A stretch of DNA of 64,000 bases from the NCBI GenBank assembly GCA_964566145.1, contig CAZMHN010000001.1, positions 16,945-80,944 on the forward strand. Direction: 5' to 3'. The notes below the pieces were generated by a model. The model was not told where the DNA came from. It made no database searches and saw only the letters and a program-made list of their open reading frames with translations. Source of the stretch: an uncultured Gammaproteobacteria bacterium (GTDB taxonomy: Bacteria; Patescibacteriota; Patescibacteriia; Veblenbacterales; UBA10138). A program made the translations under genes and the position numbers. This document shows, in pieces, positions 13,995 through 55,603 of the stretch; the stretch's first letter is position 1, and each line of letters starts with the position of its first letter.

Positions 13995-14055
13995 ACCAAG
14001 TTCGGCTATTCTCCGACAGCTCACGCGCAAACTGCACCATGCGATAGGTAAGCGC

Positions 14056-15816: not shown

Positions 15817-15892
15817 TTATGTAGTACCCTAAAGTACCGACGTTAGAAGCGCTCCGCAGGGCCTCACTTACACACCCTGCGGTACACATGGG

Positions 15893-15979
15893 GGGCGAGT
15901 GGCGGAATTGGTATACGCGTACGCTTCAGGAGCGTATGGCCGTAAGGTCGTGAGGGTTCAAGTCCCTCCTCGCCCACCA
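15893..15979 (+). tRNA. tRNA-Leu (anticodon CAG), type II with a long variable arm.
   Basis: Folded by hand. Acceptor GGGCGAG/CTCGCCC; 3-bp D-stem with 11-nt loop; anticodon loop TTCAGGA; 15-nt variable arm; T-loop TTCAAGT; discriminator A; CCA encoded. Confidence 0.9.
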
Positions 15980-16105
15980 CGTGTACTCACCTTGGCGCCC
16001 ATGTCCGTAGCGCCACAGGAATCCTACGACGACCTGCGCGAAACAGGTCACCTAATCTCAAGCCGCCTGGGAATTTAAACAACCCACCGCGGCATTCACT
16101 CACGT

Positions 16106-29033: not shown

Positions 29034-30386
29034 CTAGTGCCTCACCCAGTCCACAGCCTCGGCCACAGTACGGACCGCTACCACTTGCATGTCTTTGGGT
29101 GGATGGATGTCGCCGGGCAACGTCGGCACCAACGCCTGCTTGAAACCAAGCCGCCCTGCCTCCATGAGGCGCTTGCCCATGCCCGTAACCGGACGCACTT
29201 CGCCGCCCAAGCCAACCTCGCCGAACACCATGAGATCCTGAGGCAAGGTCTTCTTTAGGGCGGCCGAGGCCACGGCCGCGCACACGGCCAGATCCAAAGC
29301 CGGCTCGCGGCTACGAAAGCCTCCGGCCAGGTTTATGTATACGTCGCTGAAGTTGAGCCTGACGCCGGCCCGCTCCCCCAGGACCGCCAGCAGAACCTGC
29401 AGACGGTTCGCGTCGAACCCAGTGGTGGCGCGCGTCGGCCTGGACTGATGCGCCCTAGTGACCAGGGCCTGAAGCTCTATGGCCAGGCTCCGCGAACCTT
29501 CCAGCACGCAAGTCACGCACGAACCTGCGCCGTGATGGCGTTCGCGCAGGAACAGCTCAGACGGATTTGCCACCTCCGCAAGTCCCCTGTCATCAATCTT
29601 GAACACCCCCACCTCATCGGTCGATCCGAAACGGTTCTTGGAAGCGCGTAAAAATCTCAGAGATTGATGCGGGTCGCCGTCCAGGGCCAACACCACGTCC
29701 ACCAGATGCTCCACAGTCTTGGGGCCGGCGGCTATGCCTTCCTTGGTCACATGCCCGACAATGGCAACGGGAACTCCGGTAGCCTTGGCTGTCTGCGCCA
29801 GCTCAGCGGCCACGGCCCGCACCTGGTTGGGCGAGCCCAGCGAGCCGTCCGTGCCTGGGTGCTGAAAAGTCTGCAAGCTGTCCACCACGGTAAGCTGAGG
29901 CAGGCGCTGTCTTATGGACGCCGTAAGCGCTAACACGTCGGTACTGGAAACGAACGCCAAAGACTCCCCTTTCAAACCAAGCCTGTGAAAACGTCCGGCT
30001 ACCTGTTCGGCGGATTCCTCACCCGAGGCATAGAGCGCCGACGCGGCTCTTCCGGCTATAGCCAGAAACAAAGTGGACTTGCCTACGCCAGGTTCGCCGG
30101 ACACCAACAATACGCTCCCCTTGGCCAGGCCGCCGCCCAGCACGCGGTCGGCCTCGGCAAAACCGGTTGCCGTCTTAGGCGCCTGCACCGCTCCCGCTTG
30201 CGACAAAGACACGGCCTCGGCCGGAACGCTCGACGGACCGACGGGCTTCCTGGCCGCTTGAATCGCGGCGCCTTCAGTCCCTATGGTGCCGAACTTGCCG
30301 CATTGCGAACACCGGCCAGTCCACTTCGGATACTGGGCGTCACAGTTTGAGCACGCATACACAATGGATACCTTGGCCATAACCAC
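29034..30386 (-). CDS. radA: DNA repair protein RadA/Sms.
   Basis: 450 aa. N-terminal C4 zinc finger (CSNCDAQYPKWTGRCSQCGKFG). RecA-like ATPase Walker A (GEPGVGKST). KNRFG motif. Lon-like C-domain. Confidence 0.95.
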   Translation of the reverse strand: MVMAKVSIVYACSNCDAQYPKWTGRCSQCGKFGTIGTEGAAIQAARKPVGPSSVPAEAVSLSQAGAVQAPKTATGFAEADRVLGGGLAKGSVLLVSGEPGVGKSTLFLAIAGRAASALYASGEESAEQVAGRFHRLGLKGESLAFVSSTDVLALTASIRQRLPQLTVVDSLQTFQHPGTDGSLGSPNQVRAVAAELAQTAKATGVPVAIVGHVTKEGIAAGPKTVEHLVDVVLALDGDPHQSLRFLRASKNRFGSTDEVGVFKIDDRGLAEVANPSELFLRERHHGAGSCVTCVLEGSRSLAIELQALVTRAHQSRPTRATTGFDANRLQVLLAVLGERAGVRLNFSDVYINLAGGFRSREPALDLAVCAAVASAALKKTLPQDLMVFGEVGLGGEVRPVTGMGKRLMEAGRLGFKQALVPTLPGDIHPPKDMQVVAVRTVAEAVDWVRH

Positions 30387-30401: not shown

Positions 30402-31754
30402 TCAGTTACAGCATGAGGACATCTTCGGCTTCTCAAAATGCCAGGGCTCGGAACACAGCTTACAAAAACCCTGGTCACGCATAGCTTGGATGACAGCCGC
30501 CATGGCCGTATTCTGTTCGCACAACGTCTTGTTCTTAAGGCACTCCTTCTGGGTGATGGCCTGCACGCTACCCATAGATGGCCATACGTCCACCGCCCGA
30601 CCGGTGGTATGCGGACAACTTATCGGCCCGTTGTTCATCATGCACGTAGTGGGACGGCCAGGCTTTGGATTGCATGATATAGGCGGGTTGCACGGCGGAC
30701 TGGCACACGGGGTATTCTGACAGTTCAGGGCAATAAGCTCGCGTTGCTTGGCTTCACTGCGGAGGCCAGAAGCAATGACCAGGCTAATCCCTTTGTTCTT
30801 GAGCGCGCTCGCCGCCTTTTCCAAGTCAATCGCGATTGAATAATCCACCCGCTGGCCCGAGCTGTTTATGATATTGTCACCGGACACTGCCCATGCCGTT
30901 GGCGAACTTTGAGTGGAGACGTCCTCACTTGATTCCAGCGTATCAAGACTGAACTCTATGCGGTCTATTGGCGTAATTGCATCCAGAGACTGCAAATCAA
31001 CCAACGCCGGATTCACGAGCGAAAGCAGAGAATAGGAAATAAGCGCAATGACCAATCCGGACAATGCACTAAAAATTGTGTCGTTGGCATCAGTTATCTT
31101 GGTGGGACTGCCTGCGGCTATGATGCGCTTGAAGCCGCCCCACATCACCATGACCACGGCGACCACGGCCAGCATGGCCACAAAAAAGCGGTAGAAAAGG
31201 GCGAAATAATGCACTGCGGTCGAAGCGGTAATGACTATTCCCTCGCCTGCCCGGACGGTAAAGTTGGCTCCTCCAATAGTAATGCTACCCGGAATAGTAA
31301 CCTGTGGTATGAAAGTAACCGAGCTGGCTGGCGATGGAGTTTCAGAATCAAGATCAAGCGGCAAGGTTGACGCCACGGTCGATGATACAACAACTGCGTC
31401 ATCGATAACATCTTGCTCACCCCCAGGCGCCGCCAGCATCACTGTCTTGACACAGGCATACTCCGCCTGATTCGTACCGATGGGGCGATAACAGCACACG
31501 TACCTGGGAACGCCCGGCATGGAACTGCCTTCTAGGCCCGGACACATAACCTCATTTCCAGTTATACCGCAGGTATCATCGCTGGGGTCGCCTACGTTAT
31601 TGGTATTGTAGGCTGTGAATGCGGCCGGTAAATAGGCGCTGTCAGCGACCTTGCACGCTTCCGCCGCGTCCTGACCAGTCTGGGCCATAGCCAGCATAGG
31701 CACCACCAATGCCGTTACGCACCATATGCCGGATAAAATCCACAGCCTGCTCAT
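30402..31754 (-). CDS. Secreted Cys-rich protein with a VirB2/TrbC-like two-helix membrane hairpin and a C-terminal LAS-superfamily M15 (VanY-like) peptidase domain.
   Basis: Signal peptide. Hairpin FYRFFVAMLAVVAVVMVMWGGFKRII...ALSGLVIALISYSLLSLVNP. C-terminal motifs SGLRS...Q..L, H...GRAVDVW and EPWHFE. Confidence 0.6.
   Translation of the reverse strand: MSRLWILSGIWCVTALVVPMLAMAQTGQDAAEACKVADSAYLPAAFTAYNTNNVGDPSDDTCGITGNEVMCPGLEGSSMPGVPRYVCCYRPIGTNQAEYACVKTVMLAAPGGEQDVIDDAVVVSSTVASTLPLDLDSETPSPASSVTFIPQVTIPGSITIGGANFTVRAGEGIVITASTAVHYFALFYRFFVAMLAVVAVVMVMWGGFKRIIAAGSPTKITDANDTIFSALSGLVIALISYSLLSLVNPALVDLQSLDAITPIDRIEFSLDTLESSEDVSTQSSPTAWAVSGDNIINSSGQRVDYSIAIDLEKAASALKNKGISLVIASGLRSEAKQRELIALNCQNTPCASPPCNPPISCNPKPGRPTTCMMNNGPISCPHTTGRAVDVWPSMGSVQAITQKECLKNKTLCEQNTAMAAVIQAMRDQGFCKLCSEPWHFEKPKMSSCCN
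31078..31181. repeat. Direct repeat copy 1 (about 104 nt, roughly 95% identical to 34626-34729).
   Basis: By-eye alignment of the two TM-hairpin coding cores. Only about 6 mismatches. Confidence 0.8.
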
Positions 31755-31773
31755 ATCTCAAGCATAAAGGTGC

Positions 31774-32424
31774 TTAGAGTTGCTGTCGAATTATGGCTTC
31801 CAGATCGGAAGCGGTAAGCAGGCCGCTCCACGCCTGGCCGTTGATTACAAAGTAGGGCGTCCCGTCGATGCCTATGGCGTCCCCCTCCCGCCGATTGCGT
31901 TCTACTATCGCCTGCGTCTCTTTGCCGTCCAGACACCTTATGAACTGCGGCAGCCTTAAACCCACCTCTCCCGCCAGCTCAACATAGGCATCGTTGCCCA
32001 AGCGTGCCTGTTCACGGAACAGGACGTCGTGGTACTGCCAGAATTTGCCCTGCTGATGCGCACACTGCGCCGCTATAGCCGCAGGCAGTGCTTCGTCGTG
32101 TCCAGGCACCGGGTAATCCTTCCATACCAGCCTGGCCTTGCCGCCGGAACTCTCAACCGCCTGCCTTGCCGCCGGAGCGGACTGGGCGCAATAGGGGCAC
32201 TGGAAGTCGCTGAACTCGACTATGGTGACATTGGCGGTGCCAGACCCCAGGCTGGGATCAGCCGCGAACACCTGCACTTGCGCAGGCAACTTATAATCCA
32301 ACGGCTCCTCGAGCGGCACTGGACCGGAAGAGCCCTTGGGCCAAGCTTTCACTGCTGCCATTGCCAGCACTATGCAACTCACGCCTAGAAGCCAGAGCAA
32401 TGGCGAACGAATCCACGCCGGCAT
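31774..32424 (-). CDS. DsbA-like thiol:disulfide oxidoreductase (thioredoxin fold).
   Basis: N-terminal anchor. CPYC active site. TPYFVING cis-Pro loop region. Confidence 0.8.
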   Translation of the reverse strand: MPAWIRSPLLWLLGVSCIVLAMAAVKAWPKGSSGPVPLEEPLDYKLPAQVQVFAADPSLGSGTANVTIVEFSDFQCPYCAQSAPAARQAVESSGGKARLVWKDYPVPGHDEALPAAIAAQCAHQQGKFWQYHDVLFREQARLGNDAYVELAGEVGLRLPQFIRCLDGKETQAIVERNRREGDAIGIDGTPYFVINGQAWSGLLTASDLEAIIRQQL

Positions 32425-32433
32425 AGCGAGTCA

Positions 32434-33663
32434 CTACTCCGATAACTGCATACTTCGCAATATGCCCGTAGCGTCATCCGTAAAATACAGGAACCGTCCG
32501 TCCCCGGAAACAGTCAGATTCCCTGTCGTAACGCCTTCTCCCCGCTCGTTGACCGGCGAACCCACCACCGTGGTACTGCCGGTCGTATAGTCGATGCGCC
32601 AAACGGTGTCTGGCACGCCCTGCGCCATCTCGCGCGCAAACCCGGCGCCAGCTGGAAGCTCCTGAGGCACGGCGCAATAGGCCGCCGAACCCGCGAAAGT
32701 ACATTTATCGGCCCAAGTGGACAGATTCAAAGTCTGGTGGTTTGAGCCCACCCGGTCAACCGAACCGTCCACCAGGTAAAGCATGGGCTTGTAGTCGGTC
32801 TGATCGCTGTACGCCGAATACAATATGCGCTGTCCGTCCGGAGTCCACTTGGGAGTAAAGCCCCGGCCTTCCACGTTCAGGGCTCGGTAATTCTCATCGT
32901 TGAAGCCTATGAGAAGAACTTGCTGTTCGAACACGCCCTGCGCCTCGCCGGTACGAGACAGCGCTACCACCTGGTTGTTCGGCGCCCATTCTACATCCAC
33001 CTTGTCCGCGTTGTCGCCCATAGGCTCTATGCCCCTGAGATTCGAGCCGTCCGGATTCACGGCCACTATCCAATTGTCAGCCGTACGGTCGCTCAGGAAC
33101 TTGCCGGCCAGCTCGCTACTGTCGTATGAAAAGGAAAACTCAGCCATCTCCTGGGGGAGCGTGTACTGCTTCTGCGTACGGAAATCGTACACGATGTTGG
33201 CGCCATCCGGGAACTCAAGCACGGCCTTGTCCTTGGAACCGGCCCAGGTAATATCCTGCACGTTGCAATACGTGGCCTCGGCCAGGCGGCTACGGTTGCC
33301 GCTCGCGTCCACCTCGTAGAACTGACACGTAGCCGCGTCGTAGTACCGCACCGTCCCGCTTGAAGTCACCTCCGGATCCAAGGCCGCGCCGCTGGTAAGG
33401 GCCGGTGAAGCGGTAAGGCCTCCGTCAGCTACGAGCGAAGCTTCCGGGAACACAGGCACTCCGATACCCGGCTCGTTCGTGCCTGGCGCAGGTCCGCCTT
33501 CATTCACGGCCGGAAAGCCTCCTGGCGGAGTTACGTTCACGTTAGTAGGCGGCTCAACCGGCTCCGGACGCCACACCAGGTACATAAGCCAGGCCAGCAC
33601 TATGATGCCAACGGCGACCACCGCCATCAAAATAAGCTTCCGTCTGTCCAAATTCTCAAGCAT
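32434..33663 (-). CDS. Membrane-anchored TolB-like beta-propeller protein.
   Basis: N-terminal TM helix, Pro-rich linker, repeated WxPDG-type blades (VAVNPDGSN, PKWTPDGQRILYSA, SGDGRFLYF). Confidence 0.6.
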   Translation of the reverse strand: MLENLDRRKLILMAVVAVGIIVLAWLMYLVWRPEPVEPPTNVNVTPPGGFPAVNEGGPAPGTNEPGIGVPVFPEASLVADGGLTASPALTSGAALDPEVTSSGTVRYYDAATCQFYEVDASGNRSRLAEATYCNVQDITWAGSKDKAVLEFPDGANIVYDFRTQKQYTLPQEMAEFSFSYDSSELAGKFLSDRTADNWIVAVNPDGSNLRGIEPMGDNADKVDVEWAPNNQVVALSRTGEAQGVFEQQVLLIGFNDENYRALNVEGRGFTPKWTPDGQRILYSAYSDQTDYKPMLYLVDGSVDRVGSNHQTLNLSTWADKCTFAGSAAYCAVPQELPAGAGFAREMAQGVPDTVWRIDYTTGSTTVVGSPVNERGEGVTTGNLTVSGDGRFLYFTDDATGILRSMQLSE

Positions 33664-33667
33664 ATGC

Positions 33668-35098
33668 CTAGCGGTCAGGGAAATTGGCCCGTGTAATGTT
33701 TAGATCGCACACGAACGGAGTCCTAATACTTCCATCCTGATTCAGTATCGCACTTTCCGGTATCAAACTGGAAGCGGGCACGGCACCCCAATCCAATCTG
33801 TCAACCGCCGCGGCCTTGGGGTCACTGGCACTGGGCGACGAACCGGAAATGTGCTTTGTTTCGCCGGCTTGACAAGAAGAAGCATCCACAGCATACCAGT
33901 CATCTGACCCGGAGCTTTCAACTTCGACTAAAAGTGCATAGCCCTTGCCTCCTCCTGATGAGGAACATAAGGCCGACGGTCGTAACGGCATATAGGAACG
34001 TTCTCCGGTCATTCCACCGCCCTGGCCCCAACAATTAGAAACGGCATAGGCTGATTTGCCCTCGACGTCAATGGTGCTGACATTAGGTGCATTTGGTTCG
34101 CTTACGCTACAATCAAAACCTGAAGCAGGGTTAGTATTATTACATATTATCTGTAAATCAATGTAATTAGTCTCGATTCCAGTGAGCTTACCCTGTATCA
34201 GATAATTACTACACGCATATTTCGGACTGTCGCTATAAAGATTTTCAAAACATCCTTGTCCGCCATCGCATTCTATCCCGATACATTCATTTCCATTGAC
34301 TACAAGTGTCCTTCCGCATGTCACTAATGGCCGCTGCGTTATAAGTTCAGCGCTGGAACCACCACACTGTCCACCGCCCGGACAATCTGAGTTCTGATAA
34401 CAATCCATCCTGTTGCGGTCTCCGCCTACACATTTGCCGGTTTTGTCATAGTATCCCACGCTATACAGCCCCGGATTCTCGCTGTACTTAGGACAGAAAC
34501 CGAAAAAATCCGGCTTGACCATTTCTATGGGCGGCAGGGTGTTCAAGACCAGTCTTGGGTTCACCAATGAAAGCAAAGAGTAGGACAAGAGCGCTATCAC
34601 CAGGCCTGAAATCGCACTGACAATCGTGTCGTTGGCATCAGTTATCTTGGCGGGACTGCCCGCGGCCATAATACGCTTGAAGCCGCCCCACATCACCATG
34701 ACCACGGCCACCACAGCCAGCATGGCCACGAAGAACTTGTAGAACGCCGCCAGGTATTGCGGGAATCCGCCCGTGACCTTGCTTCCGAAGCCGGGAATGG
34801 GCACCTGGAGGTCTATGTTCGTACTGCCTACAAAACAGCGGGCTGTTTCCACGTCAGCCGTACCCCGGCAGTTCTCCACGCTCCATTGGTCATTCTCCCC
34901 ATTTCCATACACCGGATTTCCGCGAAATACGTTTCCCTTGCCCCATATGCCCTTGGCCCCTTCGCAATCAGCTTCCAGCCAGCAACGCTTCTGCAACGCC
35001 TCATCCAATCCCGAATCGGCGGCCAACGCCGGCAGGGCCACCCACGGCAACACCAGCACCGCCAATGATACGAGTAAAATGAAAAATCTCCTGTTCAT
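33668..35098 (-). CDS. Paralog of 30402-31754: secreted Cys-rich protein with the same VirB2/TrbC-like membrane hairpin and a large Cys-rich C-terminal domain.
   Basis: Signal peptide. Hairpin FYKFFVAMLAVVAVVMVMWGGFKRIMAAGSPAKITDANDTIVSAISGLVIALLSYSLLSLVNP. About 25 Cys downstream. Confidence 0.6.
   Translation of the reverse strand: MNRRFFILLVSLAVLVLPWVALPALAADSGLDEALQKRCWLEADCEGAKGIWGKGNVFRGNPVYGNGENDQWSVENCRGTADVETARCFVGSTNIDLQVPIPGFGSKVTGGFPQYLAAFYKFFVAMLAVVAVVMVMWGGFKRIMAAGSPAKITDANDTIVSAISGLVIALLSYSLLSLVNPRLVLNTLPPIEMVKPDFFGFCPKYSENPGLYSVGYYDKTGKCVGGDRNRMDCYQNSDCPGGGQCGGSSAELITQRPLVTCGRTLVVNGNECIGIECDGGQGCFENLYSDSPKYACSNYLIQGKLTGIETNYIDLQIICNNTNPASGFDCSVSEPNAPNVSTIDVEGKSAYAVSNCWGQGGGMTGERSYMPLRPSALCSSSGGGKGYALLVEVESSGSDDWYAVDASSCQAGETKHISGSSPSASDPKAAAVDRLDWGAVPASSLIPESAILNQDGSIRTPFVCDLNITRANFPDR
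34626..34729. repeat. Direct repeat copy 2 (pairs with 31078-31181).
   Basis: See copy 1. Confidence 0.8.
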
Positions 35099-35099
35099 A

Positions 35100-35630
35100 C
35101 TATTGTGCTACCCACTTATACACCGTGCCCGCAAGCTCGCATCCGCCCACCTTGCCGAACAGACCCAAAACTGGCGATACGGCCGGGCCTAGGTTTTCGC
35201 ATGCCATGGCCGGGTCACTAACCAACGCGTAAACCACGCCGAACACTATAATCAGAATTGTAAGCGCAAAAAGCATTAATCCGTAATTGACCGCCTTTTC
35301 CCAGCCAGACTGTTTCCACCATGGTATAACGATTGGAAAAATTATTGTCTCTATAAACGACCAGGATAACAAGGCCCAGATGGAAATAAACACGTCGCCC
35401 AAGGATGTGGTGCCGAACGTCACTCCTTTTATCAGCCAACCTATCCTCTTCAGCTGTTTCAGTTTCTTGGCTAGACGTTCGACTGACTCTGCCTTACCCT
35501 GCAGAGCCGATGCCGCGGCTTTCCCAGCTACCCGCTTTGCCAATTCGCGCTCGGCCACCAAGGCTACCTGCGTCTCGCGTGCAACGGCCGCGCCCCTAAC
35601 CACGGCAGCGGCAATGGCAGGTAAGGGCAT
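35100..35630 (-). CDS. Hypothetical membrane protein (3 TM helices) in the T4SS-like operon.
   Basis: 176 aa. Charged N-terminus followed by hydrophobic helices. Confidence 0.5.
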   Translation of the reverse strand: MPLPAIAAAVVRGAAVARETQVALVAERELAKRVAGKAAASALQGKAESVERLAKKLKQLKRIGWLIKGVTFGTTSLGDVFISIWALLSWSFIETIIFPIVIPWWKQSGWEKAVNYGLMLFALTILIIVFGVVYALVSDPAMACENLGPAVSPVLGLFGKVGGCELAGTVYKWVAQ

Positions 35631-35633
35631 AGG

Positions 35634-36200
35634 CTACTGCTCCCACCTGGCGCTATCCACCAGCCACTGACCGCCGCTTAGCACCATGGACAACCTTAGT
35701 TTTTGATAAGACAGTCTGGGCGCCTCCTCGCGCGCAAAGCGCTCCTGCCGCTGTACTTGCACCCAAACTTCGGCCGAAATTTCCCCCTGCTGGATCACTT
35801 CTAGAACGAGCGCCCGCGAGGAAGAGCTGTAAAACGCCGCCGGTTCGCCCGCGCCCGAATCCATGGTTCGCTCGACCTGCCGGCGTAAGCCTTCGGTGTA
35901 GAACCGGTCGAGTGCTTTCAAATTTTCGAATGGCGCGTCTGTGGAGTAACTGCCGTACCCCTCGGCAAAGGCGTAAGCAGTCTGCTGAAGGCCCAGGGTG
36001 TTCGTGTCAACGGCCGGTTCGCCTGCGGGGGCCGGCTGAATCGGATCAGGAGCGGAGGCCTCGGGCGATTGTTCTGTTATGGGCGGTTGCTCTATCCGGC
36101 CGCTGGATGTGCGCGAGGACCACAGGCTCCACGCGGCTATGCCCAGGGCCGCTATCAGTGCTGCCGACAAGGAAATTATGATAAGCAGACGTCGGTTCAT
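35634..36200 (-). CDS. Bitopic membrane protein with an extracytoplasmic domain. Possible VirB8/TcpC-like (NTF2-fold) component.
   Basis: N-terminal TM helix followed by a roughly 150-aa domain with an alternating hydrophobic beta pattern. Placed immediately beside virB4. Confidence 0.4.
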   Translation of the reverse strand: MNRRLLIIISLSAALIAALGIAAWSLWSSRTSSGRIEQPPITEQSPEASAPDPIQPAPAGEPAVDTNTLGLQQTAYAFAEGYGSYSTDAPFENLKALDRFYTEGLRRQVERTMDSGAGEPAAFYSSSSRALVLEVIQQGEISAEVWVQVQRQERFAREEAPRLSYQKLRLSMVLSGGQWLVDSARWEQ

Positions 36201-36206
36201 GTCTTT

Positions 36207-38087
36207 CTACCCTATCTCCGGCTCCTGCAGGCTGGCCTCGAACTGTTTCTTGGCCTCTTCTATCTCCAGAAGCTGCCTGGGGTCGCTAGTTATGAGCTGA
36301 TCCTCGGTGTAGCTGGCCACCACCTTGATGGCGGCGTGCTTTGAGCCGGCGAAGAATATACCCTCGCCTACCCCGCACTCCAGCAATAAGTACTTCTCAC
36401 CCTCGGTCAGAAGGAAGGTCTTCACCACAATGTCGATGCCGGCTGACGACTGCTTCAACAGCAGTTGCAGGCTGGAATTCGTGACTATGGCCTGTCCGTA
36501 GGGGCTGGTCAGGAAATCGTTCACGTCTTGCGTAATTGTGGTAACGCCAAGGTAGTACTTGCGGCAACGTTTCACCAACGCGAAGATGAATTTGGCAGAG
36601 TCCTCGTGCTGCATCAGCCACCATGCCTCGTCGATGACCAAAATGCGTTTCTTCAATTGTGACCTGACCACGTTCCAGATGTAGTTCACGATGGTGTATA
36701 TGGCGATGGGCCTGAGCTCATCCTCCAAATCCCTGACCGAGAACACCACCAGCTGGTTCCGCACGTCAACGTTAGTGGGACTGTTGAACAATCCGGCAAA
36801 AGTACCCTCCGTATACTTTTTGAGCCGCAATACCAAATCCTCCCCGCCCTGCATGCCCGCCAGCACTTCTTCGAAATCCGCCATGACCGGCGACTCCGCC
36901 TTAGACAGGTCCGTAGTAGAGGTAATGTCCTTCTTGGCGTAGGTTTCAATGAGTGCGCGGTCGATGATGGAGTCCTCCTGATGTGTAAGGTTGCCCAGCA
37001 TCAGACGCATCAGGCCCTTCAGAGTGATGACGGCTGAACGTATAATGTCGCCGGTCTTCACGTCGCCTACCGGGCGCGGCAAATCAAACGGGTTTATCTT
37101 GGCGTCCGAATTCAGAGAAATATTCACGTAGGTCCCGCCCACGGCATCGCACAGGTGCTTGTACTCCATTTCCGGGTCAACAATGATGACGTCCGTACCC
37201 ATCATGAGCGAACGGAGCACCTCGAGCTTCACGGCGTAGCTCTTGCCAGCGCCCGATGTGGCGAACACCACCATATTGGCGTTCTGCAAGCTGAATCTGT
37301 CGAACAGAATGAGCGAATTATTGTGGCGGTTGATGCCGTACAGTATGCCGTTATCACTGGTCAGCTCGGCGGAGATGAAAGGGAAAGACGAGGCCACCGG
37401 CGACGTGTTCATGTTGAAGTAAATCTGCAGTTCGTCGTTGGCCAACGGCAAGGTGGAGTTGAATCCCTGTTCTCCCTGCCACAGCGCGCGTCGGGAGTAG
37501 ACCAGCTTGGAGCCGATGATGGATTCCACCTGTTCGGTAAGCTTGTCCAGCTCCTTTTTATCGTGGGAGTAAATGGTGGCATAAAGCGCGAACTGGAAGA
37601 AGCGCTCGATGCCTTGGGTCAGGTCGTCCCTAAGCTTCTCAATGTCCCTAAGGGCTGTTTCGCGTATGGGATCCCTGGGTGCGCCCTTGTCATGGTCAGC
37701 CACTATCTGCGCCTCCAGTGCGCCCACTTTGTTCCGGAGCTGCTTCAGGATGACTTCGGACGGCACCTGGTAGAAGAACATGCCCACGTCCAAGGTGGCG
37801 TTCAGGTTCACGATGGGGGCGAACCACCCCACGGATATGTACCTCGGGTACGACAGCACGAACAAGGTCCGGAGGTAGAGGTCGTTGAGCTCCACGTGAT
37901 CGGGCATGATGCGGAAACTGGCCGGCGCGATAAGGTCCCGTACGCGGACCGCCCCTTCCCGCAATATTCTTTCAGCCTCCAGTATCTCCTTTTGCGTGCC
38001 AGTCGGAATAACCTGCTCCGGGGGCGGAGCGGCCGTCTCCTTGAGCTGTTTCTGCACCTTGCTTTTCGTAAAAAGTCCCATAGTCAC
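36207..38087 (-). CDS. virB4: VirB4/TrbE/CagE-family type IV secretion ATPase, central and C-terminal ATPase portion.
   Basis: 626 aa. Walker A VVFATSGAGKSYAV. Walker B ILVIDEAWWLM. VirB4-type middle domain. Confidence 0.9.
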   Translation of the reverse strand: MTMGLFTKSKVQKQLKETAAPPPEQVIPTGTQKEILEAERILREGAVRVRDLIAPASFRIMPDHVELNDLYLRTLFVLSYPRYISVGWFAPIVNLNATLDVGMFFYQVPSEVILKQLRNKVGALEAQIVADHDKGAPRDPIRETALRDIEKLRDDLTQGIERFFQFALYATIYSHDKKELDKLTEQVESIIGSKLVYSRRALWQGEQGFNSTLPLANDELQIYFNMNTSPVASSFPFISAELTSDNGILYGINRHNNSLILFDRFSLQNANMVVFATSGAGKSYAVKLEVLRSLMMGTDVIIVDPEMEYKHLCDAVGGTYVNISLNSDAKINPFDLPRPVGDVKTGDIIRSAVITLKGLMRLMLGNLTHQEDSIIDRALIETYAKKDITSTTDLSKAESPVMADFEEVLAGMQGGEDLVLRLKKYTEGTFAGLFNSPTNVDVRNQLVVFSVRDLEDELRPIAIYTIVNYIWNVVRSQLKKRILVIDEAWWLMQHEDSAKFIFALVKRCRKYYLGVTTITQDVNDFLTSPYGQAIVTNSSLQLLLKQSSAGIDIVVKTFLLTEGEKYLLLECGVGEGIFFAGSKHAAIKVVASYTEDQLITSDPRQLLEIEEAKKQFEASLQEPEIG

Positions 38088-38092
38088 CCTGC

Positions 38093-38815
38093 CTATACGG
38101 GTTGCTCGTCAGGCAACACCGCAGTGGTCCGGTCAACCTGCAATTTATCTATGTCCGTCATGGGTTGCTGGCCCTTGAGCTCCGGGTTGTACGTGGCGTA
38201 GTACAGTTCAATCAGGCTTTGGGTATCCAGTCGAGCCACCTTCAGACTAATGGAGTTCAGTCCTGTGGCCACAAAATCACACCGCTTGGCCAGCTCATCC
38301 GCGTGATGCTCGAACTCCTGGCGGTTCAGACGCACGTGCTTGGCGGCGCTGAAGGCGGATAGGAACCGCGAGACAGGGCTCCGCTGTTTGTCGGATACCG
38401 GACTGTACGGCACCACCACGAAAAACCGCTTGGTCATGATGTCGCCCAGGCTGATAAGCTCCTTGATGTAGTTCAGATACTCGCTTATCTGCACCCGCAG
38501 AAGCTCGTTCGTTTGTTGCTTCTCCAGGTCGGCCAGGTTCTTGAGGTATGAGTCTATGTTGAGCTTCCTGGACTGAATGACTATCTGGAGCGGGAAGTCG
38601 AGCGAATTCAGGAACTGCATGTAGGCCTGGATGGTGGCCGTCTGCTCGTCCTCGCTCTTCAGGGCAAAATTTATGGATGAAGCCAAGAGCACGCCCCGGA
38701 GCGTTCCGTCGCGCATAATGACGCATCCGTCCCGCACCTCGGCGATGTCGAGATACGAAGACGTAGGCGGTCCGACTTTCGACTTGGCTAATACATTCCT
38801 AAGCGGCATAAACAA
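38093..38815 (-). CDS. virB4: VirB4 N-terminal domain encoded as a separate ORF (split gene or frameshift).
   Basis: LDIAEVRDGCVIMRDGTLRGVLLAS...EDEQTATIQAYMQFLNSLD follows the VirB4/TrbE N-domain pattern. TAG stop sits 5 nt before the GTG/ATG of the ATPase ORF, in a different frame. Confidence 0.7.
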   Translation of the reverse strand: MFMPLRNVLAKSKVGPPTSSYLDIAEVRDGCVIMRDGTLRGVLLASSINFALKSEDEQTATIQAYMQFLNSLDFPLQIVIQSRKLNIDSYLKNLADLEKQQTNELLRVQISEYLNYIKELISLGDIMTKRFFVVVPYSPVSDKQRSPVSRFLSAFSAAKHVRLNRQEFEHHADELAKRCDFVATGLNSISLKVARLDTQSLIELYYATYNPELKGQQPMTDIDKLQVDRTTAVLPDEQPV

Positions 38816-38818
38816 ATA

Positions 38819-39271
38819 TCACTCCTTGCTCTTGGCTCCAAACTCGTCTTCCGGCTGATACGCTCCTCCGGTATCCACGACCAACGACAACTCCTGTAGC
38901 CGGGAAGACGGGACGTAAGGCTTGGTGCGGTGAGTTTCCGGAACGGCCGTGGTGGCGCGGCCGCGCGCCGGAGCCACATCGGTAAGTTCAGTCGGCTTCT
39001 GCCACACCCGCACCTTGGGCGTGAAGAACGTAGCGAAAAAGTTGGACAGGAAGAAATGGAACGGCATCCCGTTCACTTTCATGAAAGCGAACAGCGCCGT
39101 CAGGAACACGGTCACCAACGCTTCTAAAATGAACAAGCCGAAATCAGCGAACTTGAACTCCAAGAACAGGAGGAATCCGGCCACCAACATAACTATGAAC
39201 TGACGGACGGTTACGGGGCCGATTATCTTATCCTCTACATCTATGAACTGCGGGACGACGAACTGTTGCAT
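38819..39271 (-). CDS. PrgI-family protein (VirB3 analogue of Gram-positive-type T4SS).
   Basis: MQQFVVPQFIDVEDKIIGPVTVRQFIVMLVAGFLLF... two TM helices, then KVNGMPF...VRVWQK. Matches the PrgI family signature. Confidence 0.75.
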   Translation of the reverse strand: MQQFVVPQFIDVEDKIIGPVTVRQFIVMLVAGFLLFLEFKFADFGLFILEALVTVFLTALFAFMKVNGMPFHFFLSNFFATFFTPKVRVWQKPTELTDVAPARGRATTAVPETHRTKPYVPSSRLQELSLVVDTGGAYQPEDEFGAKSKE

Positions 39272-39298
39272 ATAAAGTAAGTGTACCACGCGCCCGGT

Positions 39299-41254
39299 CT
39301 AGAATCTGAGCTTACTATTAAAATCGACTACGGCATTGAACTCAGCCTCGGTCAGCACCTTCTCCCCAAGGCTCTGGTGTGCCGTGATGACCTGCGCCAC
39401 GGGCTTTTCCTGTTCTATGCTCTCCCGCCCGAGGGCAATGTACTGGCGATAGACCGGGCTCATGTGCCAAGCCTTCACCGCCTCAATGCGCCTGGCGATC
39501 GACGTTTCCCCGATGAGATCTATCTTGGCGCGTACCTTACGGAATGCCTCGGTCGGCGTGGCGCCCAGACGGCGGAAATCGACCAATGAAAGCGTCATGA
39601 GCTCATCGAGAGGACCCACCACCTTAGGCGGGGCTTTCACGTCCATAAGCTGAGGACGCACCGTCTCGCGCGTCGAGGCGGCTACCGCAGGCGCTTTGGT
39701 CTGTAGCTCCCTGAGCATCTGCTGGCGCCACTCCTCGGCCTTCCCGGCATCGAAAGCCGGCGCGGACGGCCTCTGCGGGGGCGCGGATGCGCCCAGCGGC
39801 GGGCGGGGGGGCAACGGAGCGCCTGCTGGCGGGGCTACCGGCTCCGCCTGCGGCTTCACTTCGCCCCTTGTCAAGCGTTCGCCGAATTCGCGCTTGGCCG
39901 ATTCCATTATGCCTATGACCTGCTCAGCCTTGCTTGATTCCAGAGCCAAGCCGCCGGTCTCGGCCGGCTTCAACAGCGCCTCGCGCACCTCCACAGTCCC
40001 GCGGACATCTTTGAGGCGCGACACGAACAGCTGAATGAACCGCCGCTTATTCACGTCATCCTTGAAAGCCAGGCTGTTCTTCTGTATCACTTCATCGGCA
40101 TAGCGCCGCAACTCCTGTTCCAATGTCAAAGACCCCTCCGTCTTCTCACGGTGCTTATCAGCCTCGCGCTCATCCTCCAGGTCGAAGAAGAACGCCGGTC
40201 GGGCCGTCTTCATGGCCTGTGGCGTGGGCTGAAGCGGCACAATAGGCAAGGTTTCCGGAGGCGGCACGAACTTGGTCGGCACTACGGGCTGGGGAGAGGG
40301 TATGCCTCCCTCCGTCTGTTCAGCCGGCTGGCTGGGTGCGGGAGGAGCCAACGACAAAGATGTTCTCTCCTCGACCAGCTCTCGCTCGGTCATCGGAATA
40401 ACAGGTTGTCGTGTTTGGCTCACTGGCGGAACTTGCACACCGATAGTCTGTTCCTGTTCTTCTCCCGGCGTCTCAGCCGCGCTCCGCGCTCCGCCGGCAT
40501 TCCTTATCTTATCAATTATGTCGTCCGGTTCTTTAGGCAGAGTGCGCACCTGGCCTTTGTCTAAAATCACCTTTTCCCCCTGATTCACGAAGGTAACGCG
40601 CTCCTCGAGCCCCTCTGGCGTAAGCGACGACAATTGCAAGTAGTCAAACAAACCCAGCAGAGAACGCAAAACTGCACGCTGTGCGCCATCTAGCGCCATA
40701 ACGGCGGAGTTCTGGCTCAAATACTGCCCGCGCTTATAGGCGTCGATGGTGCTGGCGCCGGCGAAGTTCCTGTAATCGCGCAACCAATCTCCTACGGTGC
40801 GCACCGCTTGAGATTCATTCGTCTTGTCGCCAAGCGATTCCACGTTTTCCATGAGGGCTTGGACCAGCTGTTTCTTGTGCGCATCGCGCTGTTCATGCAG
40901 AATAATCCCGACCAGCCTGGCTTCCACCTTATCCTGCACATCCATATCAACATCCGTCAGGCCCGTCAGCGCTCCGTCACGGAAAAGCTCTACGGCATCT
41001 TTATCCAACAGAAAAGGCAGGCATAAAAATCCAAGCCGCTTTCTGAGTTTCTGATAGGTCATCCACAGCGACTGCTCCTGCTTTAGGCCTGTTGCCCCAG
41101 CCAAAGCTTGCGAAAGCGCCTTCCATAACTCATACCCCTTCGCCATGTCGCCCTGGCCGACGACAAAATCAACGTATCGGCCCAACAGATCGCAAAAATC
41201 CGTTGAGGATAAACGCTGAGCCAGTGCTTGGCTTGAAAAATTATCCTCCGGCAT
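39299..41254 (-). CDS. Hypothetical soluble protein with Pro-rich linkers in the T4SS-like operon.
   Basis: 651 aa. No TM helix and no Walker motifs. Two PxxP-rich low-complexity stretches. Confidence 0.5.
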   Translation of the reverse strand: MPEDNFSSQALAQRLSSTDFCDLLGRYVDFVVGQGDMAKGYELWKALSQALAGATGLKQEQSLWMTYQKLRKRLGFLCLPFLLDKDAVELFRDGALTGLTDVDMDVQDKVEARLVGIILHEQRDAHKKQLVQALMENVESLGDKTNESQAVRTVGDWLRDYRNFAGASTIDAYKRGQYLSQNSAVMALDGAQRAVLRSLLGLFDYLQLSSLTPEGLEERVTFVNQGEKVILDKGQVRTLPKEPDDIIDKIRNAGGARSAAETPGEEQEQTIGVQVPPVSQTRQPVIPMTERELVEERTSLSLAPPAPSQPAEQTEGGIPSPQPVVPTKFVPPPETLPIVPLQPTPQAMKTARPAFFFDLEDEREADKHREKTEGSLTLEQELRRYADEVIQKNSLAFKDDVNKRRFIQLFVSRLKDVRGTVEVREALLKPAETGGLALESSKAEQVIGIMESAKREFGERLTRGEVKPQAEPVAPPAGAPLPPRPPLGASAPPQRPSAPAFDAGKAEEWRQQMLRELQTKAPAVAASTRETVRPQLMDVKAPPKVVGPLDELMTLSLVDFRRLGATPTEAFRKVRAKIDLIGETSIARRIEAVKAWHMSPVYRQYIALGRESIEQEKPVAQVITAHQSLGEKVLTEAEFNAVVDFNSKLRF

Positions 41255-41255
41255 A

Positions 41256-44200
41256 CTAAACGGACCTACCTTTCATAATATTCTCAATGTTCGCAAACGC
41301 GCCTTCGCCTTCTCCAGTGCCTGCGAATTCCTTCAGCTCATCCAAAAATTCCCCGTATTCTTTCAACTTATCCGGACTCACAAAACCCTTCCGCGCAAGC
41401 TCCTCAAGCTGTTGCACGTTGTCGCCTGACGTCAGGTTGACCGCCAGGTTCACATTGAAGCGCTCTTTCTTCAATTGCTCCCGCATGCCCTCCCATTTCT
41501 CTACGAAATAGGCCTTGCCGAAATCATTTATCTGAAAGCCCCTCTGTCCGCTCACGGCGTACGCCTTGGCGCGCTCTTCGGCTGAGACATCAGGCGGCAG
41601 GTCAGGGGCCGGAGTTTCTGAACCCCAGGCCAGCCTGTTGGCTTCGCGCAAGAACCTTTCAAAGTCCACCTTGCGAACTTCGGCGAGGACCTCCTTCATC
41701 CTGTCGCCTTCATCCTGCCACTCCATTTTTCCGTTCTCTACTTTCACAGCCCTGGCGGCGCCCCAGTGCTTCACGCCCTCCGCTATATAGCTCGCGTCAC
41801 TGCCTATGGAAAGCGCCTGTTCTCGAGCCATGCCCAATTTCTTGATGAATATCTCCTCAATGAACTGGCGCATGCCGGTGGCGTCCGATTTGAAACCGAA
41901 TTCGTTCTGTATCTCATTCTCGTTCCCATACTTGGTGGCCTTCAGGTATGCGGCCGCGGCCCTGGTTGTATCGCCGACTTCAATCGCGTCTCTCATTATT
42001 TTATGGAGCTCCTGCCAGTTGTCAGTCTGCATCTCGCTCATCTCTTTGTTGATCTCAGTCCGCTGCTCACGGCGAATCTCATAATCGGTCGCCGGGGCGT
42101 ACTCGTTGGCTTGCCGCAATTCTTCCTGCATCTCTTCATTGAGTTTGGCGATGCGTCCGGCCGCAGCCGCCCTGTCCACCTCGCTCGTGTATGAACTTTT
42201 TGCATCCGCCTCGGCCTCGTCTGCCTCATGGCGCAGCTTCGTCACCCGCGCCGCCTTATCCGATTTTTCTTCGGCCGAAAGCCCAGGATGCTGAAGGCCT
42301 CCTATGAGCGCTTCCACTCGGCGTATCTCTTTGTCATCTCCTGCCAAAGCCTCTTGTTGTTGTTTAGGCAACAGCCCTTGAATCCTCAGCTGCCTCGCCT
42401 TAGCCTCGCGCGCCTGTTGCAGGCTAACGAGTTTCTGCGTGAGTTCCTCAAGCCGCTTGTTGCGGGTTTCCATTTGATCAGGCAACAAACCCTTATTATC
42501 GGAAATGGCTTTGGCCTGCTGGCGCTTGCTCATGGCCAGCCCCACCAAGCGCTCCCGCTCCATCCGCTCGACCTCTGCGGGACTCTTGCCCTCATACTGG
42601 CTGAAGCTCGCAGCGTACTGCTGTTTCTTCTTTTCGACTGCTTTCTGGATTTCATCTGCTTCTTTCATCAGCTTGGTCTTCGCTTTCGTATCATCCGTAG
42701 CCCCGGCCAACTCCACCTTTTTCCCGTACTCTTTTTCCAATCTAGCAATGTCTTTCTTCTCGCGTTCCATCTTCTGGAAAATCACATCAGACTTGTTCGG
42801 CTTTGCCTTGCCGGAAAGAGCCGCCATTTGCTGCCTTATCTCGTCGGCGCGTTGTTTGTGCCTGAGGTATGTCTTTCCGGTAATATCCCCTGCTCGGAAT
42901 GAGGCGACCTTGCCCAAATTCTTCAGATTCCACTGATGGGTAAACAGATGGGCGGGCGAGCCAAGCGCCTGCAGTACCCTGCCCTTCTCCACCCTGTCCA
43001 AATACACCGACTGCTGTCTGGTCACGCGGTCGGAGGCGCGCTTGGCCACGCCCTTTTGCCAGCCCTCCTTCCATTTCTTGAGCGATCCCTCAACACCCAA
43101 TCGCGATGTGGCCTCTTCCCACAAGAACTTGCCAGTACCCTTCGCCCCCTTGCCGGCCAACACGGCCGCCCCGCCAGCCAGTCTCAATGGCGCCTTGGCA
43201 ATTGAGGCTCCGGCGCCTTGAATCTTGGCCATGGCCTTGCCCGCCAGCTGACCGCCCATCACTCCCAACTGCTGGGTCATCCACAAGCCGCCCATCAGAA
43301 GGATTATGTTGACGATGAAAGACAGCAGCACTTCGGACTGTCCAATCTCAGTTATGGCCGCCGCGGGAATGCTAAGGTCATCCACTCCCGCGGCCTGATT
43401 GGCCGTGAAATCCCCGAGAGCATTAGTGCTGAACTGCATCACTGCCAAAGACAGCCACAGGAAGAATGCCAGAATCGGTCCGGTCGAAGCGTACCTGCCA
43501 AACTGATCCCACCACATTGATGAGTACTTCTTGGCGTCGCCCGGGAAAGCCGAGAGTACGTAAGCTATGGGTGAGACAATGACGAGGAACCACAGCGCCA
43601 CGATGCGGATTAGGAACACCATGAGATACACCGCCACCACAACAGTGGTGATGATTATGGTGATAAGCGCCAGCATGGCGGCAAACAAGAACGACTCGCC
43701 GCTCGCCTCGGACGTTCCCTGCTCCGCGAATTTGAATATCTCGGCCAAGTGGAACCCCTGTACAAAGTTGCCTGCGGCGGCCTCCTTGAACCCGTTCACG
43801 AAAGTGAGCATGACCACCTGGGCCACGTCGATGAAGAAACCCGTGATAGCCTTGGAGAAATTTACCAGCACGGCCATGATGAGGAGCTTGCCCAGGAGCT
43901 TCTTGTACTGGTACTCCTCGATGCGGAACACACTGCCAAAGGCGATAAGCAGCAGAATGACGACGAAGAACATGTTGGATATGTCCCTCACGATGACCCA
44001 TCCCTTCTTCACCGCCTCGGCGTTGATGAAATCGTTGTATTGCGCCACCTCTATGAGGAGCCCAATGAGCGTGAGGGTGAGCTTGCCCAAAAAGCTGGCA
44101 ATGGCCAAAATGATGCCTGCAAAAAATCCCGCCACCGCACTGGCGATTTGAGCATTGGCCGCCACGGGAACGAGCGCCGCCAGCACCGCAAGCACCGCCA

Positions 44201-44273
44201 TGGCGGTAAGCCAGGCGGGTCGGTGCGCTATGCGGCGAGCGTATGCTGCCAATCGGGCGAATGTACTGCCCAT
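41256..44273 (-). CDS. VirB6/TrbL-like polytopic membrane protein with a roughly 600-aa charged coiled-coil C-terminal extension.
   Basis: 1005 aa. Signal/TM, then about 8 TM helices in the first 400 aa. K/E/Q/R-rich heptad-like tail. Confidence 0.7.
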   Translation of the reverse strand: MGSTFARLAAYARRIAHRPAWLTAMAVLAVLAALVPVAANAQIASAVAGFFAGIILAIASFLGKLTLTLIGLLIEVAQYNDFINAEAVKKGWVIVRDISNMFFVVILLLIAFGSVFRIEEYQYKKLLGKLLIMAVLVNFSKAITGFFIDVAQVVMLTFVNGFKEAAAGNFVQGFHLAEIFKFAEQGTSEASGESFLFAAMLALITIIITTVVVAVYLMVFLIRIVALWFLVIVSPIAYVLSAFPGDAKKYSSMWWDQFGRYASTGPILAFFLWLSLAVMQFSTNALGDFTANQAAGVDDLSIPAAAITEIGQSEVLLSFIVNIILLMGGLWMTQQLGVMGGQLAGKAMAKIQGAGASIAKAPLRLAGGAAVLAGKGAKGTGKFLWEEATSRLGVEGSLKKWKEGWQKGVAKRASDRVTRQQSVYLDRVEKGRVLQALGSPAHLFTHQWNLKNLGKVASFRAGDITGKTYLRHKQRADEIRQQMAALSGKAKPNKSDVIFQKMEREKKDIARLEKEYGKKVELAGATDDTKAKTKLMKEADEIQKAVEKKKQQYAASFSQYEGKSPAEVERMERERLVGLAMSKRQQAKAISDNKGLLPDQMETRNKRLEELTQKLVSLQQAREAKARQLRIQGLLPKQQQEALAGDDKEIRRVEALIGGLQHPGLSAEEKSDKAARVTKLRHEADEAEADAKSSYTSEVDRAAAAGRIAKLNEEMQEELRQANEYAPATDYEIRREQRTEINKEMSEMQTDNWQELHKIMRDAIEVGDTTRAAAAYLKATKYGNENEIQNEFGFKSDATGMRQFIEEIFIKKLGMAREQALSIGSDASYIAEGVKHWGAARAVKVENGKMEWQDEGDRMKEVLAEVRKVDFERFLREANRLAWGSETPAPDLPPDVSAEERAKAYAVSGQRGFQINDFGKAYFVEKWEGMREQLKKERFNVNLAVNLTSGDNVQQLEELARKGFVSPDKLKEYGEFLDELKEFAGTGEGEGAFANIENIMKGRSV

Positions 44274-44419
44274 GGGGTTCGTTTTAGATGGGACGGCCGA
44301 TAATTCTAACGGCCAATGTATTACGTGGCTAAATCCTAAGGAATTTTATCACGTTCATGCCTAAAAAGATATATATATTATAGCATAAATTACTCCTTTG
44401 TGCAAGAATACATAAATCA

Positions 44420-45260: not shown

Positions 45261-45300
45261 CCCCGTCCCATCGCACGCGATGGGACGGGGTATTTTATTT
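45261..45300 (+). terminator. Intrinsic terminator after the lipoprotein gene.
   Basis: ccccgtcccatcgc-ac-gcgatgggacgggg hairpin followed by tattttattt. Confidence 0.8.
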
Positions 45301-55565: not shown

Positions 55566-55603
55566 GAGCGTTACTTCCCGGTTCGCCGGACCCACGGCGC
55601 GCC

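Follow-up and report, generated by a model that had tools for sequence, protein, structure and literature searches.

A chromosomal, probably non-conjugative type IV secretion system of the Patescibacteria kind and its hairpin proteins

Within the 64,000-nucleotide (nt) stretch of contig CAZMHN010000001.1 analysed here (the window), a block of genes at 30402-44273 on the minus strand encodes recognisable parts of a type IV secretion system (T4SS), with no gene recognised in the window for a relaxase, a coupling protein or an integrase. The question raised by this locus is what kind of machine the block represents, and from where it came. It is best read as a chromosomal, vertically inherited, non-conjugative T4SS of Patescibacteria, in the arrangement of the class ABY1 and derived from the monoderm MPF_FATA conjugation machinery, an interpretation to which we assign a probability of roughly 0.78. 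The locus is ordinary for its lineage, and the system has been described before. VirB4 was found in 2,417 of 3,035 Patescibacteria genomes as a clade nested in MPF_FATA, with genes for TrsD, PrgI/VirB3, VirB6 and VirB2-like PF18895 proteins near virB4 and relaxases almost absent (Quinonero-Coronel et al. 2025 Microb Genom, PMC12102498). In Southlakia epibionticum, of the class Saccharimonadia, a T4SS is required for epibiotic growth; this essential system includes pilin genes, and neither a coupling protein nor a relaxase could be recognised in it (Wang et al. 2023 Cell, PMC10633639). Patescibacteria T4SSs are also listed as the newest members of the superfamily (2025 FEMS review, PMC12857230). 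The first-pass annotation of this DNA had considered the component set to be undescribed, which does not hold given these three publications, the linkage of the ABY1 system to radA and recG being among what they already report.

Core components of the block

The block consists of 11 co-directional open reading frames (ORFs), designated A to K from the upstream end, all on the minus strand. They encode proteins of 156-1005 amino acids (aa) and are separated by gaps of 1-19 nt. Thirteen ORFs with gaps of no more than 15 nt had been counted in the first-pass annotation; the interval holds 11, or 12 if radA is counted, and the largest internal gap is 19 nt.

Two of the earlier component calls, a VirB4 ATPase and a PrgI protein, were borne out by matches above family cutoffs. 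Gene E (36207-38087; 626 aa, or 624 aa in the database entry) scored 351.8 bits against the NCBIfam family conju_CD1110 (cutoff 325), covering profile positions 180-730 of 752. It also matched the Pfam TraG P-loop family (1e-30) and, among PDB sequences, the VirB4 C-terminal domain 4ag5 (1e-48) and R388 TrwK (1e-5), and carries the Walker A motif SGAGKS and the Walker B motif ILVIDE, the latter at residue 482. Gene C (38819-39289; 156 aa), a membrane hairpin protein, matched the PrgI family PF12666, the VirB3 analogue, with an E-value of 3.1e-7 and 31.3 bits (cutoff 27). Between them lies gene D (38093-38815; 240 aa), which encodes a soluble, TrsD-like protein resembling the N-terminal part of VirB4. 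It matched positions 130-235 of 894 of the NCBIfam VirB4_plasma profile (E 6.8e-10), the NCBIfam TrsD profile (E 1.2e-5) and positions 12-100 of 752 of conju_CD1110 (E 1.7e-4), scores that fall under the whole-protein cutoffs, as expected of a fragment. As E misses the extreme N-terminus of VirB4 and D matches that part, D and E together look like a split VirB4.

Directly after VirB4, gene F (35634-36200; 188 aa) encodes a bitopic protein in which a linker joins an N-terminal transmembrane (TM) helix to an extracytoplasmic NTF2-like domain. No sequence family was matched by this protein. The AlphaFold2 model, built from a 59-sequence alignment, had a predicted local distance difference test (pLDDT) score of 91.7 and showed the TM helix connected through the linker to an alpha+beta cone. 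The top Foldseek matches in the PDB were CagV (6iqt, E 1.3e-4), TcpC (3ub1), PrgL (7aed) and R388 VirB8 (8rtd_Y), followed by Agrobacterium tumefaciens VirB8 (2cc3), TraM, TraH and OrfG, with generic NTF2 folds interspersed. Based on the fold matches of the model, the bitopic topology and the position directly after VirB4, gene F was accepted as VirB8-like, and the possible VirB8-like bitopic protein that had been suggested from the letters alone is thereby supported by structure prediction.

The earlier description of gene A (41256-44273; 1005 aa) as VirB6/TrbL-like stood in part. The protein is polytopic, with about 6-7 TM segments at residues ~20-335 according to the TM scan, followed by a hydrophilic C-terminal domain of ~625 aa that is rich in Glu, Ala and Lys and probably coiled-coil; it contains no Cys. 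The Pfam TrbL/VirB6 family was matched by seven of 39 orthologues (best E 1.6e-4), but the window protein itself matched no Pfam or NCBIfam family, and a gene A profile matched nothing among PDB sequences. From the topology and the matches of its orthologues, gene A is a candidate 'extended' VirB6.

The remaining two genes of this part of the block had no family assignment. Gene B (39299-41254; 651 aa) is a conserved orphan, predicted to be cytoplasmic, with no TM segment or signal peptide and with helical conserved regions at residues 1-237, 345-460 and 534-651 linked by Pro-rich stretches. No Pfam, NCBIfam or PDB homology was found for it, either as a single sequence or as a profile. A profile search of a 5.8-billion-protein set returned only two proteins, low-complexity words probably swamping the candidate list, and the AlphaFold2 model from the resulting two-sequence alignment was unusable (pLDDT 44.3). 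Gene B is considered a candidate lineage-specific cytoplasmic subunit of the T4SS. Gene G (35100-35630; 176 aa) encodes a small membrane protein that is poorly conserved; it has 2-3 TM segments, and its N-terminus is amphipathic. It matched no Pfam or NCBIfam family and was found by tblastn in only two of the 80 related loci described below, and independent Logan contigs carry a gene call of the same 176 aa.

Lineage, gene order and the question of mobility

A search with VirB4 (gene E) gave 8000 candidates at E ≤1e-10. Among the best 120 of these, which were 75-89% identical, every named homologue was from Patescibacteria, the names being Veblenbacteria, Kerfeldbacteria, Buchananbacteria and 'Patescibacteria group'. 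In addition, 80 related genome loci were collected (one genome per GTDB species), in which VirB4 was 72-87% identical and gene presence was scored by tblastn and ORF mapping; those with informative titles were again Patescibacteria. Overall, the close relatives of this VirB4 (72-89% identity) were from Veblen-, Kerfeld-, Falkow- and Uhrbacteria, orders which we take to belong to the GTDB class ABY1; NCBI places Veblenbacteria in the Parcubacteria group. The resemblance to the T4SSs of ultra-small bacteria of the Patescibacteria/candidate phyla radiation, proposed in the first-pass annotation, is supported by these identities. Many of the close genome records (L001, L008, L009, L011 and others of the collection) are titled 'uncultured Gammaproteobacteria bacterium', and one is titled 'Nanoarchaeota archaeon'. 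These titles are probably placeholders or wrong labels, the loci being syntenic with those of Patescibacteria.

The comparison of gene order with related genomes, which had been proposed as a check, revealed a fixed order A-B-C-D-E-F across the 80 loci. Genes D and E were present in all 80, D always directly upstream of VirB4, and C in 78. Gene B was present in 71-73 loci, always between A and C, and F in 63-68, directly after VirB4. Gene A was detected in 41 loci, where it was fixed upstream of B-C-D-E. Of the accessory genes, I was found in 16-18 loci and J in 26, often directly upstream of radA.

This conservation bears on whether the block might be an active or decaying integrative and conjugative element (ICE), or a conjugation module derived from a plasmid, with its relaxase, coupling protein and integrase located beyond the window. 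Such an origin would agree with the placement of VirB4 in the CD1110 conjugative family and with the correspondence of C, D and E to proteins assigned as VirB3, TrsD and VirB4 in the pGO1 subclass, namely TrsC, TrsD and TrsE (PMC12102498). A tRNA-Arg gene lies 4 kb from the block, ~24 kb of the source contig extend beyond the analysed window, and the GC content of the 11-gene block is about 3 points below that of the remainder of the window (0.561 versus 0.591). The composition of the block had initially been described as the same as that of its flanks. This was true of the core genes, whose GC at third codon positions (0.68-0.77) was inside the range of the flanking housekeeping genes, but not of the GC content of the block as a whole, nor of genes G, H and K, in which the third-position values were lower (0.55-0.60).

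Against an ICE, a Pfam scan of the ~45 ORFs of at least 150 aa across the window matched no relaxase, type IV coupling protein (T4CP) or integrase, in agreement with the earlier statement that VirD4, relaxase and integrase are absent from the 64 kb. A phmmer search with VirB4 as the query, which has limited sensitivity for VirD4, found no second VirB4-like or FtsK-like ATPase in the window, and the same query gave no second VirB4-like ATPase in the 80 related loci, over 10 kb on each side of virB4. There were no att-like flanking direct repeats, the only genuine repeat being the internal duplicate of the H and K hairpins. Housekeeping genes are present on both flanks (GroEL, UvrA/C/D, RNase J, TrpRS, SHMT, FolD, RecG, KsgA, Sua5, LeuRS and ComM), and the same radA/recG chromosomal neighbourhood was seen in dozens of related genomes, with VirB4 strongly conserved across orders at 72-89% identity. 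The search for the same block on plasmids found no close copy of VirB4 in PLSDB, all matches being below 60% identity and the best at 35.6%. Relaxases are also rare in the 3,035 Patescibacteria genomes (PMC12102498). An ICE is therefore very improbable and already largely refuted. The view that the block is not an integrated conjugative element, also held in the first-pass annotation, is supported by the absence of att-like repeats, the class-wide conserved synteny and the 35.6% identity of the best plasmid VirB4.

The neighbourhood of radA and recG required a separate evaluation. As previously stated, radA (29034-30386, minus strand; 450 aa; Pfam AAA_25, KaiC, ChlI and Lon_C) is directly downstream and co-directional, 15 nt from K. 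It is divergent from recG (26278-28329, plus strand; Pfam RecG_wedge, DEAD and Helicase_C), also a conserved neighbour. Among the 80 loci, radA was within 10 kb of virB4 in 29-32 and recG in 26-28. The module of H, I, J, K, radA and recG was either downstream as in the window or inverted a few kb away, and the gene immediately before radA was almost always one for a hairpin protein or dsbA, even in the inverted modules. The ABY1 T4SS locus has been reported to lie commonly beside comF, recG and radA, and functional coordination has been suggested (PMC12102498); no comF gene was recognised within the window.

These associations are the basis of the main competing explanation, namely that the block encodes a DNA-uptake machine comparable to ComB of Helicobacter pylori or the archaeal Ced system, passing imported environmental or host DNA to RadA, RecG and ComM. 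The persistence of radA beside hairpin or dsbA genes despite inversion would fit this role, as would the adjacent recG, the ComM gene ~18 kb away at 61759-63453 and the lack of a coupling protein and relaxase, which ComB and Ced share. VirB4 itself showed a weak similarity to NCBIfam CedB (E 5.7e-14). However, the CedB score of 51.6 bits is far under both the cutoff of 700 and the conjugative VirB4 match (352 bits), and CedD gave 21 bits. The operon contains no single-stranded DNA-binding or DprA-like gene, and as single genes of a housekeeping type, radA, recG and comM may owe their position to inherited synteny. In Southlakia, competence needs type IV pili and ComEC, and a comEC deletion is viable but the T4SS is essential (PMC12857230), so that the essential role of the T4SS there is not transformation. 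An uptake machine was accordingly judged unlikely. radA is a conserved neighbour, and membership of the machine is not implied; functional coupling of the T4SS to RadA-dependent processing of imported DNA is a further possibility.

Hairpin proteins, their partners and the flanking region

The two pilin-like hairpin proteins, the peptidoglycan peptidase and the DsbA reported in the first-pass annotation were all recovered, the peptidase as a domain of one of the hairpin proteins. Gene H (33668-35098; 476 aa) encodes a signal peptide, an N-terminal ectodomain, a VirB2-like hairpin (residues ~113-184) and a Cys-rich C-terminal ectodomain. It matched Pfam T4SS_pilin PF18895 with an E-value of 1.3e-6 and 28.8 bits (cutoff 26.6), and the NCBIfam 'Mbov_0395 pilin-like' family at E 5e-5. 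Gene K (30402-31754; 450 aa) similarly has a signal peptide, a Cys-containing N-terminal ectodomain and a VirB2-like hairpin (residues ~182-252), here followed by a VanY/M15 domain in its C-terminal half (residues ~303-440). The VanY match was above the Pfam cutoff (27.1 bits, cutoff 25) and the T4SS_pilin match below it (E 5.7e-4). The catalytic motifs SxxRS, HxxGxAxD and ExWH are present as SGLRS329, HTTGRAVD382 and EPWH436, and K carries an apparently active M15/VanY peptidoglycan peptidase domain.

Gene J (31774-32424; 216 aa) encodes a DsbA-type thiol-disulfide oxidoreductase with an N-terminal membrane anchor and CPYC at residue 76, matching Pfam Thioredoxin_4 (2.5e-26) and DSBA (2.8e-20). 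Candidate substrates were apparent from the distribution of Cys. H has 20, of which four are in the N-terminal ectodomain and 16 in the C-terminal ectodomain, and K has 19, with seven in the N-terminal part and 12 in the C-terminal part; neither hairpin has any, and the cytoplasmic components have 0-3 Cys each. H and K would thus be obvious clients of J. Gene I (32434-33663; 409 aa) encodes an N-terminal membrane anchor and an extracytoplasmic TolB-like PD40 beta-propeller, matching Pfam PD40 with 24 bits (cutoff 20.9) and the NCBIfam TolB propeller below cutoff (E 6.7e-7).

The hairpins of H and K are encoded by a direct repeat of 188 nt, 83% identical, at 34557-34744 (H) and 31009-31196 (K), and are 74% identical over 86 aa at the protein level. 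In the comparison across genomes they resembled each other more than any orthologue, for which the maxima were 81% and 75%. The same was observed more widely: in 13 within-genome pairs of paralogues (loci including L003, L005, L007, L011 and L077), the median hairpin identity was 83% (85% in the window), compared to 42% between genomes. This likeness within genomes, with diverging ectodomains, suggests gene conversion or co-assembly constraints, and the homogenisation of the paralogues argues for co-assembly or a shared docking site.

In total, 36 hairpin proteins were collected from the ABY1 loci (L002-L080), with one to three per genome. All 36 matched PF18895 (best E 2.7e-12), and all were large (275-705 aa), with the hairpin located between ectodomains. 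The fused domains, counted as members matching each family and possibly overlapping, were VanY (5), Peptidase_M15_4 (2), Peptidase_M15 (2), SLT (4; best E 3e-20), 3D (1), M23 (1) and GDSL lipase (1). When 1.84 billion representatives clustered at 50% identity were searched for the hairpin-VanY fusion, 8,421 matches at E ≤1e-3 were found, 78 of them at E ≤1e-30. Both hairpin and VanY were carried by 109 of the best 150 representatives, with ~4% Cys, and the VanY catalytic motifs were kept in 99-108 of the 109. Judged from these fusions, hydrolase domains joined to a VirB2-like hairpin appear to supply the 'missing VirB1' of ABY1, and may explain the lack of VirB1 near virB4 reported for Patescibacteria. 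Nor is the accessory set particular to this genome: related loci repeatedly encode DsbA, a TolB-like propeller and hairpin proteins, and the hairpin-VanY family is populous.

Hairpin-hydrolase fusions, within-genome hairpin homogenisation and the Bacillota megaplasmid cluster described next were not found in the main texts of the Patescibacteria T4SS papers, nor are DsbA, the TolB-like propeller and VanY discussed there as accessories. The terms VanY, DsbA and PD40 do not occur in the supplementary files of PMC12102498, a set that is possibly incomplete.

Two lines of evidence relate to the origin of the hairpin component. Firstly, the 'Mbov_0395 pilin-like' family NF045849, which represents the Mbov_0395/0397-type genes of mycoplasma ICEs, was matched by 25 of the 36 ABY1 hairpin proteins. 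Secondly, the closest plasmid VirB4 in PLSDB (35.6% identity by tblastn) is on the megaplasmid NZ_CP062975.1 of Pontibacillus sp. ALD_SL1 (351.8-361.4 kb; 7486-17039 of our locus L083), where it belongs to a cluster encoding a short VirB4 (E 8e-123), a TrsD-like protein (E 2.7e-25), a PrgI-like protein of 116 aa (E 4.6e-7) and two pilin-like hairpin proteins that matched the ABY1 hairpin hidden Markov model (HMM) at E 2e-16 and 3e-15. The cluster also encodes a 779-aa membrane protein and a 1050-aa M23 peptidase, flagellar genes adjoin it, and no relaxase is annotated within 12 kb. It differs from the window in being plasmid-borne and in its small pilin-like proteins (145-151 aa), which, unlike H and K, have no fused ectodomains. 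The 779-aa membrane protein has no detectable relation to gene A, and there is no homologue of B, F, DsbA or the propeller. Together with the mycoplasma ICE similarity, this cluster of hairpin, PrgI, TrsD and VirB4 genes suggests that the hairpin component was probably inherited with the monoderm ancestor of the system rather than co-opted from diderms.

Sites resembling promoters and terminators were sought as consensus matches only, and their counts in the region were not above the shuffled expectation. The best sigma-70-like match on the minus strand, at 44377-44404 (TGCACA-16-TATAAT with an upstream TG), lies ~100 nt 5' of gene A. A strong, bidirectional terminator-like hairpin at 45261-45290, with a 13-bp stem and 10 G-C pairs, sets the operon apart from two genes, the giant gene O upstream and gene N on the plus strand.

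Gene O (45311-53791, minus strand), just upstream of the operon, encodes a giant secreted protein of 2826 aa with 131 Cys (4.6%). No internal repeats were detected by self-BLAST, and the only family match was a weak one to CBM_4_9. Homologues were found upstream of gene A in 8-10 related loci, and gene O could be a T4SS-associated adhesin and DsbA client. Gene N (44497-45255, plus strand) is a lipoprotein-like ORF of 252 aa with seven Cys, and a TSP3-repeat protein of 246 aa is encoded at 53813-54553 (minus strand). Further upstream, KsgA is at 54648-55661. The LeuRS ORF at 57418-60282 (minus strand) has an unusual insertion that matched NUDIX (Pfam PF00293, E 9e-13, residues 409-511), located after the editing domain (Pfam, 221-366) and before the rest of the synthetase. 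A LysM-M23 peptidase (60425-61762, plus strand) and ComM, a ComM/YifB-type Mg-chelatase-like ATPase of a competence-associated helicase family encoded on the minus strand, lie ~17-19 kb from the operon. The region is rich in DNA-recombination genes (radA, recG, uvrD and ComM).

Proposed role and comparison with known systems

Computation provided the identities of the components, their predicted topologies, the distribution of Cys and the synteny; the mechanism proposed here for the ABY1-type T4SS is inferred from established T4SS biology. In model T4SSs, pilin extraction is driven by VirB4 docked on VirB3 and VirB6, VirB8 serves as a scaffold and VirB1-type hydrolases open the wall; pilus biogenesis has no need of VirD4. 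By this scheme, C and A would be the membrane docking site of D and E, which would energise assembly on a platform formed by C, A and F, and F would scaffold the wall zone. K would take the VirB1 role by opening peptidoglycan, either that of its own cell or that of a host, and the hydrolase fusions of the relatives would likewise cut peptidoglycan. J would form the disulfides of the H and K ectodomains, and the ATPase would pull the hairpins of H and K, which are nearly identical, out of the membrane and assemble them on the VirB6 platform. The product might be a short pilus or a stalk-like host-contact structure, a role that the lack of a coupling protein would fit, given that model T4SSs can build a pilus without VirD4. 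By analogy with the orthologous essential system of Southlakia, contact-dependent exchange with a host cell is probable.

Several points weigh against this interpretation. For ABY1, everything said of the operon, the pilus, its substrate and contact with a host is inferred. The assignment of gene A to VirB6 is weak for the window protein itself, and membership of the Patescibacteria VirB4 clade rests on very high identity to Patescibacteria proteins. The absence of a coupling protein and of a relaxase applies to the 64 kb, and T4CPs in Patescibacteria are common but mostly distant from the T4SS locus (PMC12102498). As for the filament, the ABY1 loci contained no small stand-alone pilin over 10 kb on each side of virB4. 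Each hairpin is flanked by ectodomains of 90-300 aa, which are possibly too bulky sterically for a tightly packed filament of the VirB2 type, and the hairpin might be only a membrane anchor.

A more specific version of the proposal is that the ABY1 T4SS constitutes a distinct sub-architecture, in which hairpins under concerted evolution would form a common assembly module, and VirB4 would display interchangeable, disulfide-stabilised ectodomains on an organelle, either a pilus or stalk-like, directed at the host wall. The ectodomains would then be M15, SLT and M23 hydrolases, a lipase and Cys-rich binders, with DsbA and the TolB-like propeller as assembly factors. At this stage this version is regarded as doubtful. 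The locus is one more case of a system that is near universal in Patescibacteria and essential in the sole tractable species, and leaves that picture unchanged; for specialists, its interest is in the hydrolase fusions, the hairpin homogenisation and the Bacillota megaplasmid cluster.

Other T4SSs that work without VirD4 and a relaxase, as the window system appears to do, are H. pylori ComB, archaeal Ced, Bordetella Ptl and Brucella VirB. ComB and Ced are tied to recombination-based DNA acquisition. Unlike the window system, ComB, Ptl and Brucella VirB belong to diderms and include VirB7, VirB9 and VirB10; no CedA-like, ComB2-10, VirB7, VirB9 or VirB10-like protein was recognised in it at the family level.

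A closer correspondence was found with the MPF_FATA conjugative T4SSs (pGO1 trs, pIP501 tra, pCF10 prg and CTn2/CD1110), with which the block shares a VirB4 above the CD1110 cutoff, PrgI, a TrsD-like protein, a VirB8-like NTF2 protein (PrgL/TraM/TcpC-like fold), a membrane-tethered peptidoglycan hydrolase and the lack of an outer-membrane core. The gene order C-D-E is presumably collinear with those of pGO1 and pIP501. The window system differs in that it is not on a mobile element, and the 64 kb contain neither relaxase nor oriT, coupling protein, topoisomerase or PrgB-type adhesin. It has VirB2-like hairpin proteins, and its hydrolase is M15, not SLT/CHAP.

The closest match was to the Patescibacteria T4SSs themselves, as represented by Southlakia SEML1_0006-0019. 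These are likewise chromosomal, with a closely related VirB4, TrsD directly upstream of VirB4, PrgI/VirB3, a VirB6 candidate, PF18895 hairpins and a peptidoglycan hydrolase in the cluster, and with no relaxase or local coupling protein. With the ABY1 T4SSs in particular, the window shares the neighbours recG and radA, a nearby KsgA and a VirB8-like protein; VirB8 homologues are almost confined to ABY1 among Patescibacteria (PMC12102498). The main difference is in the hairpin proteins. The Saccharimonadia T4SS has arrays of 2-11 small divergent pilins with a mean identity of 25%, whereas the window and its ABY1 relatives have one to three large hairpin proteins with near-identical hairpins (median 83%) and Cys-rich or enzymatic ectodomains, and the window operon also includes a dedicated DsbA and TolB-like propeller.

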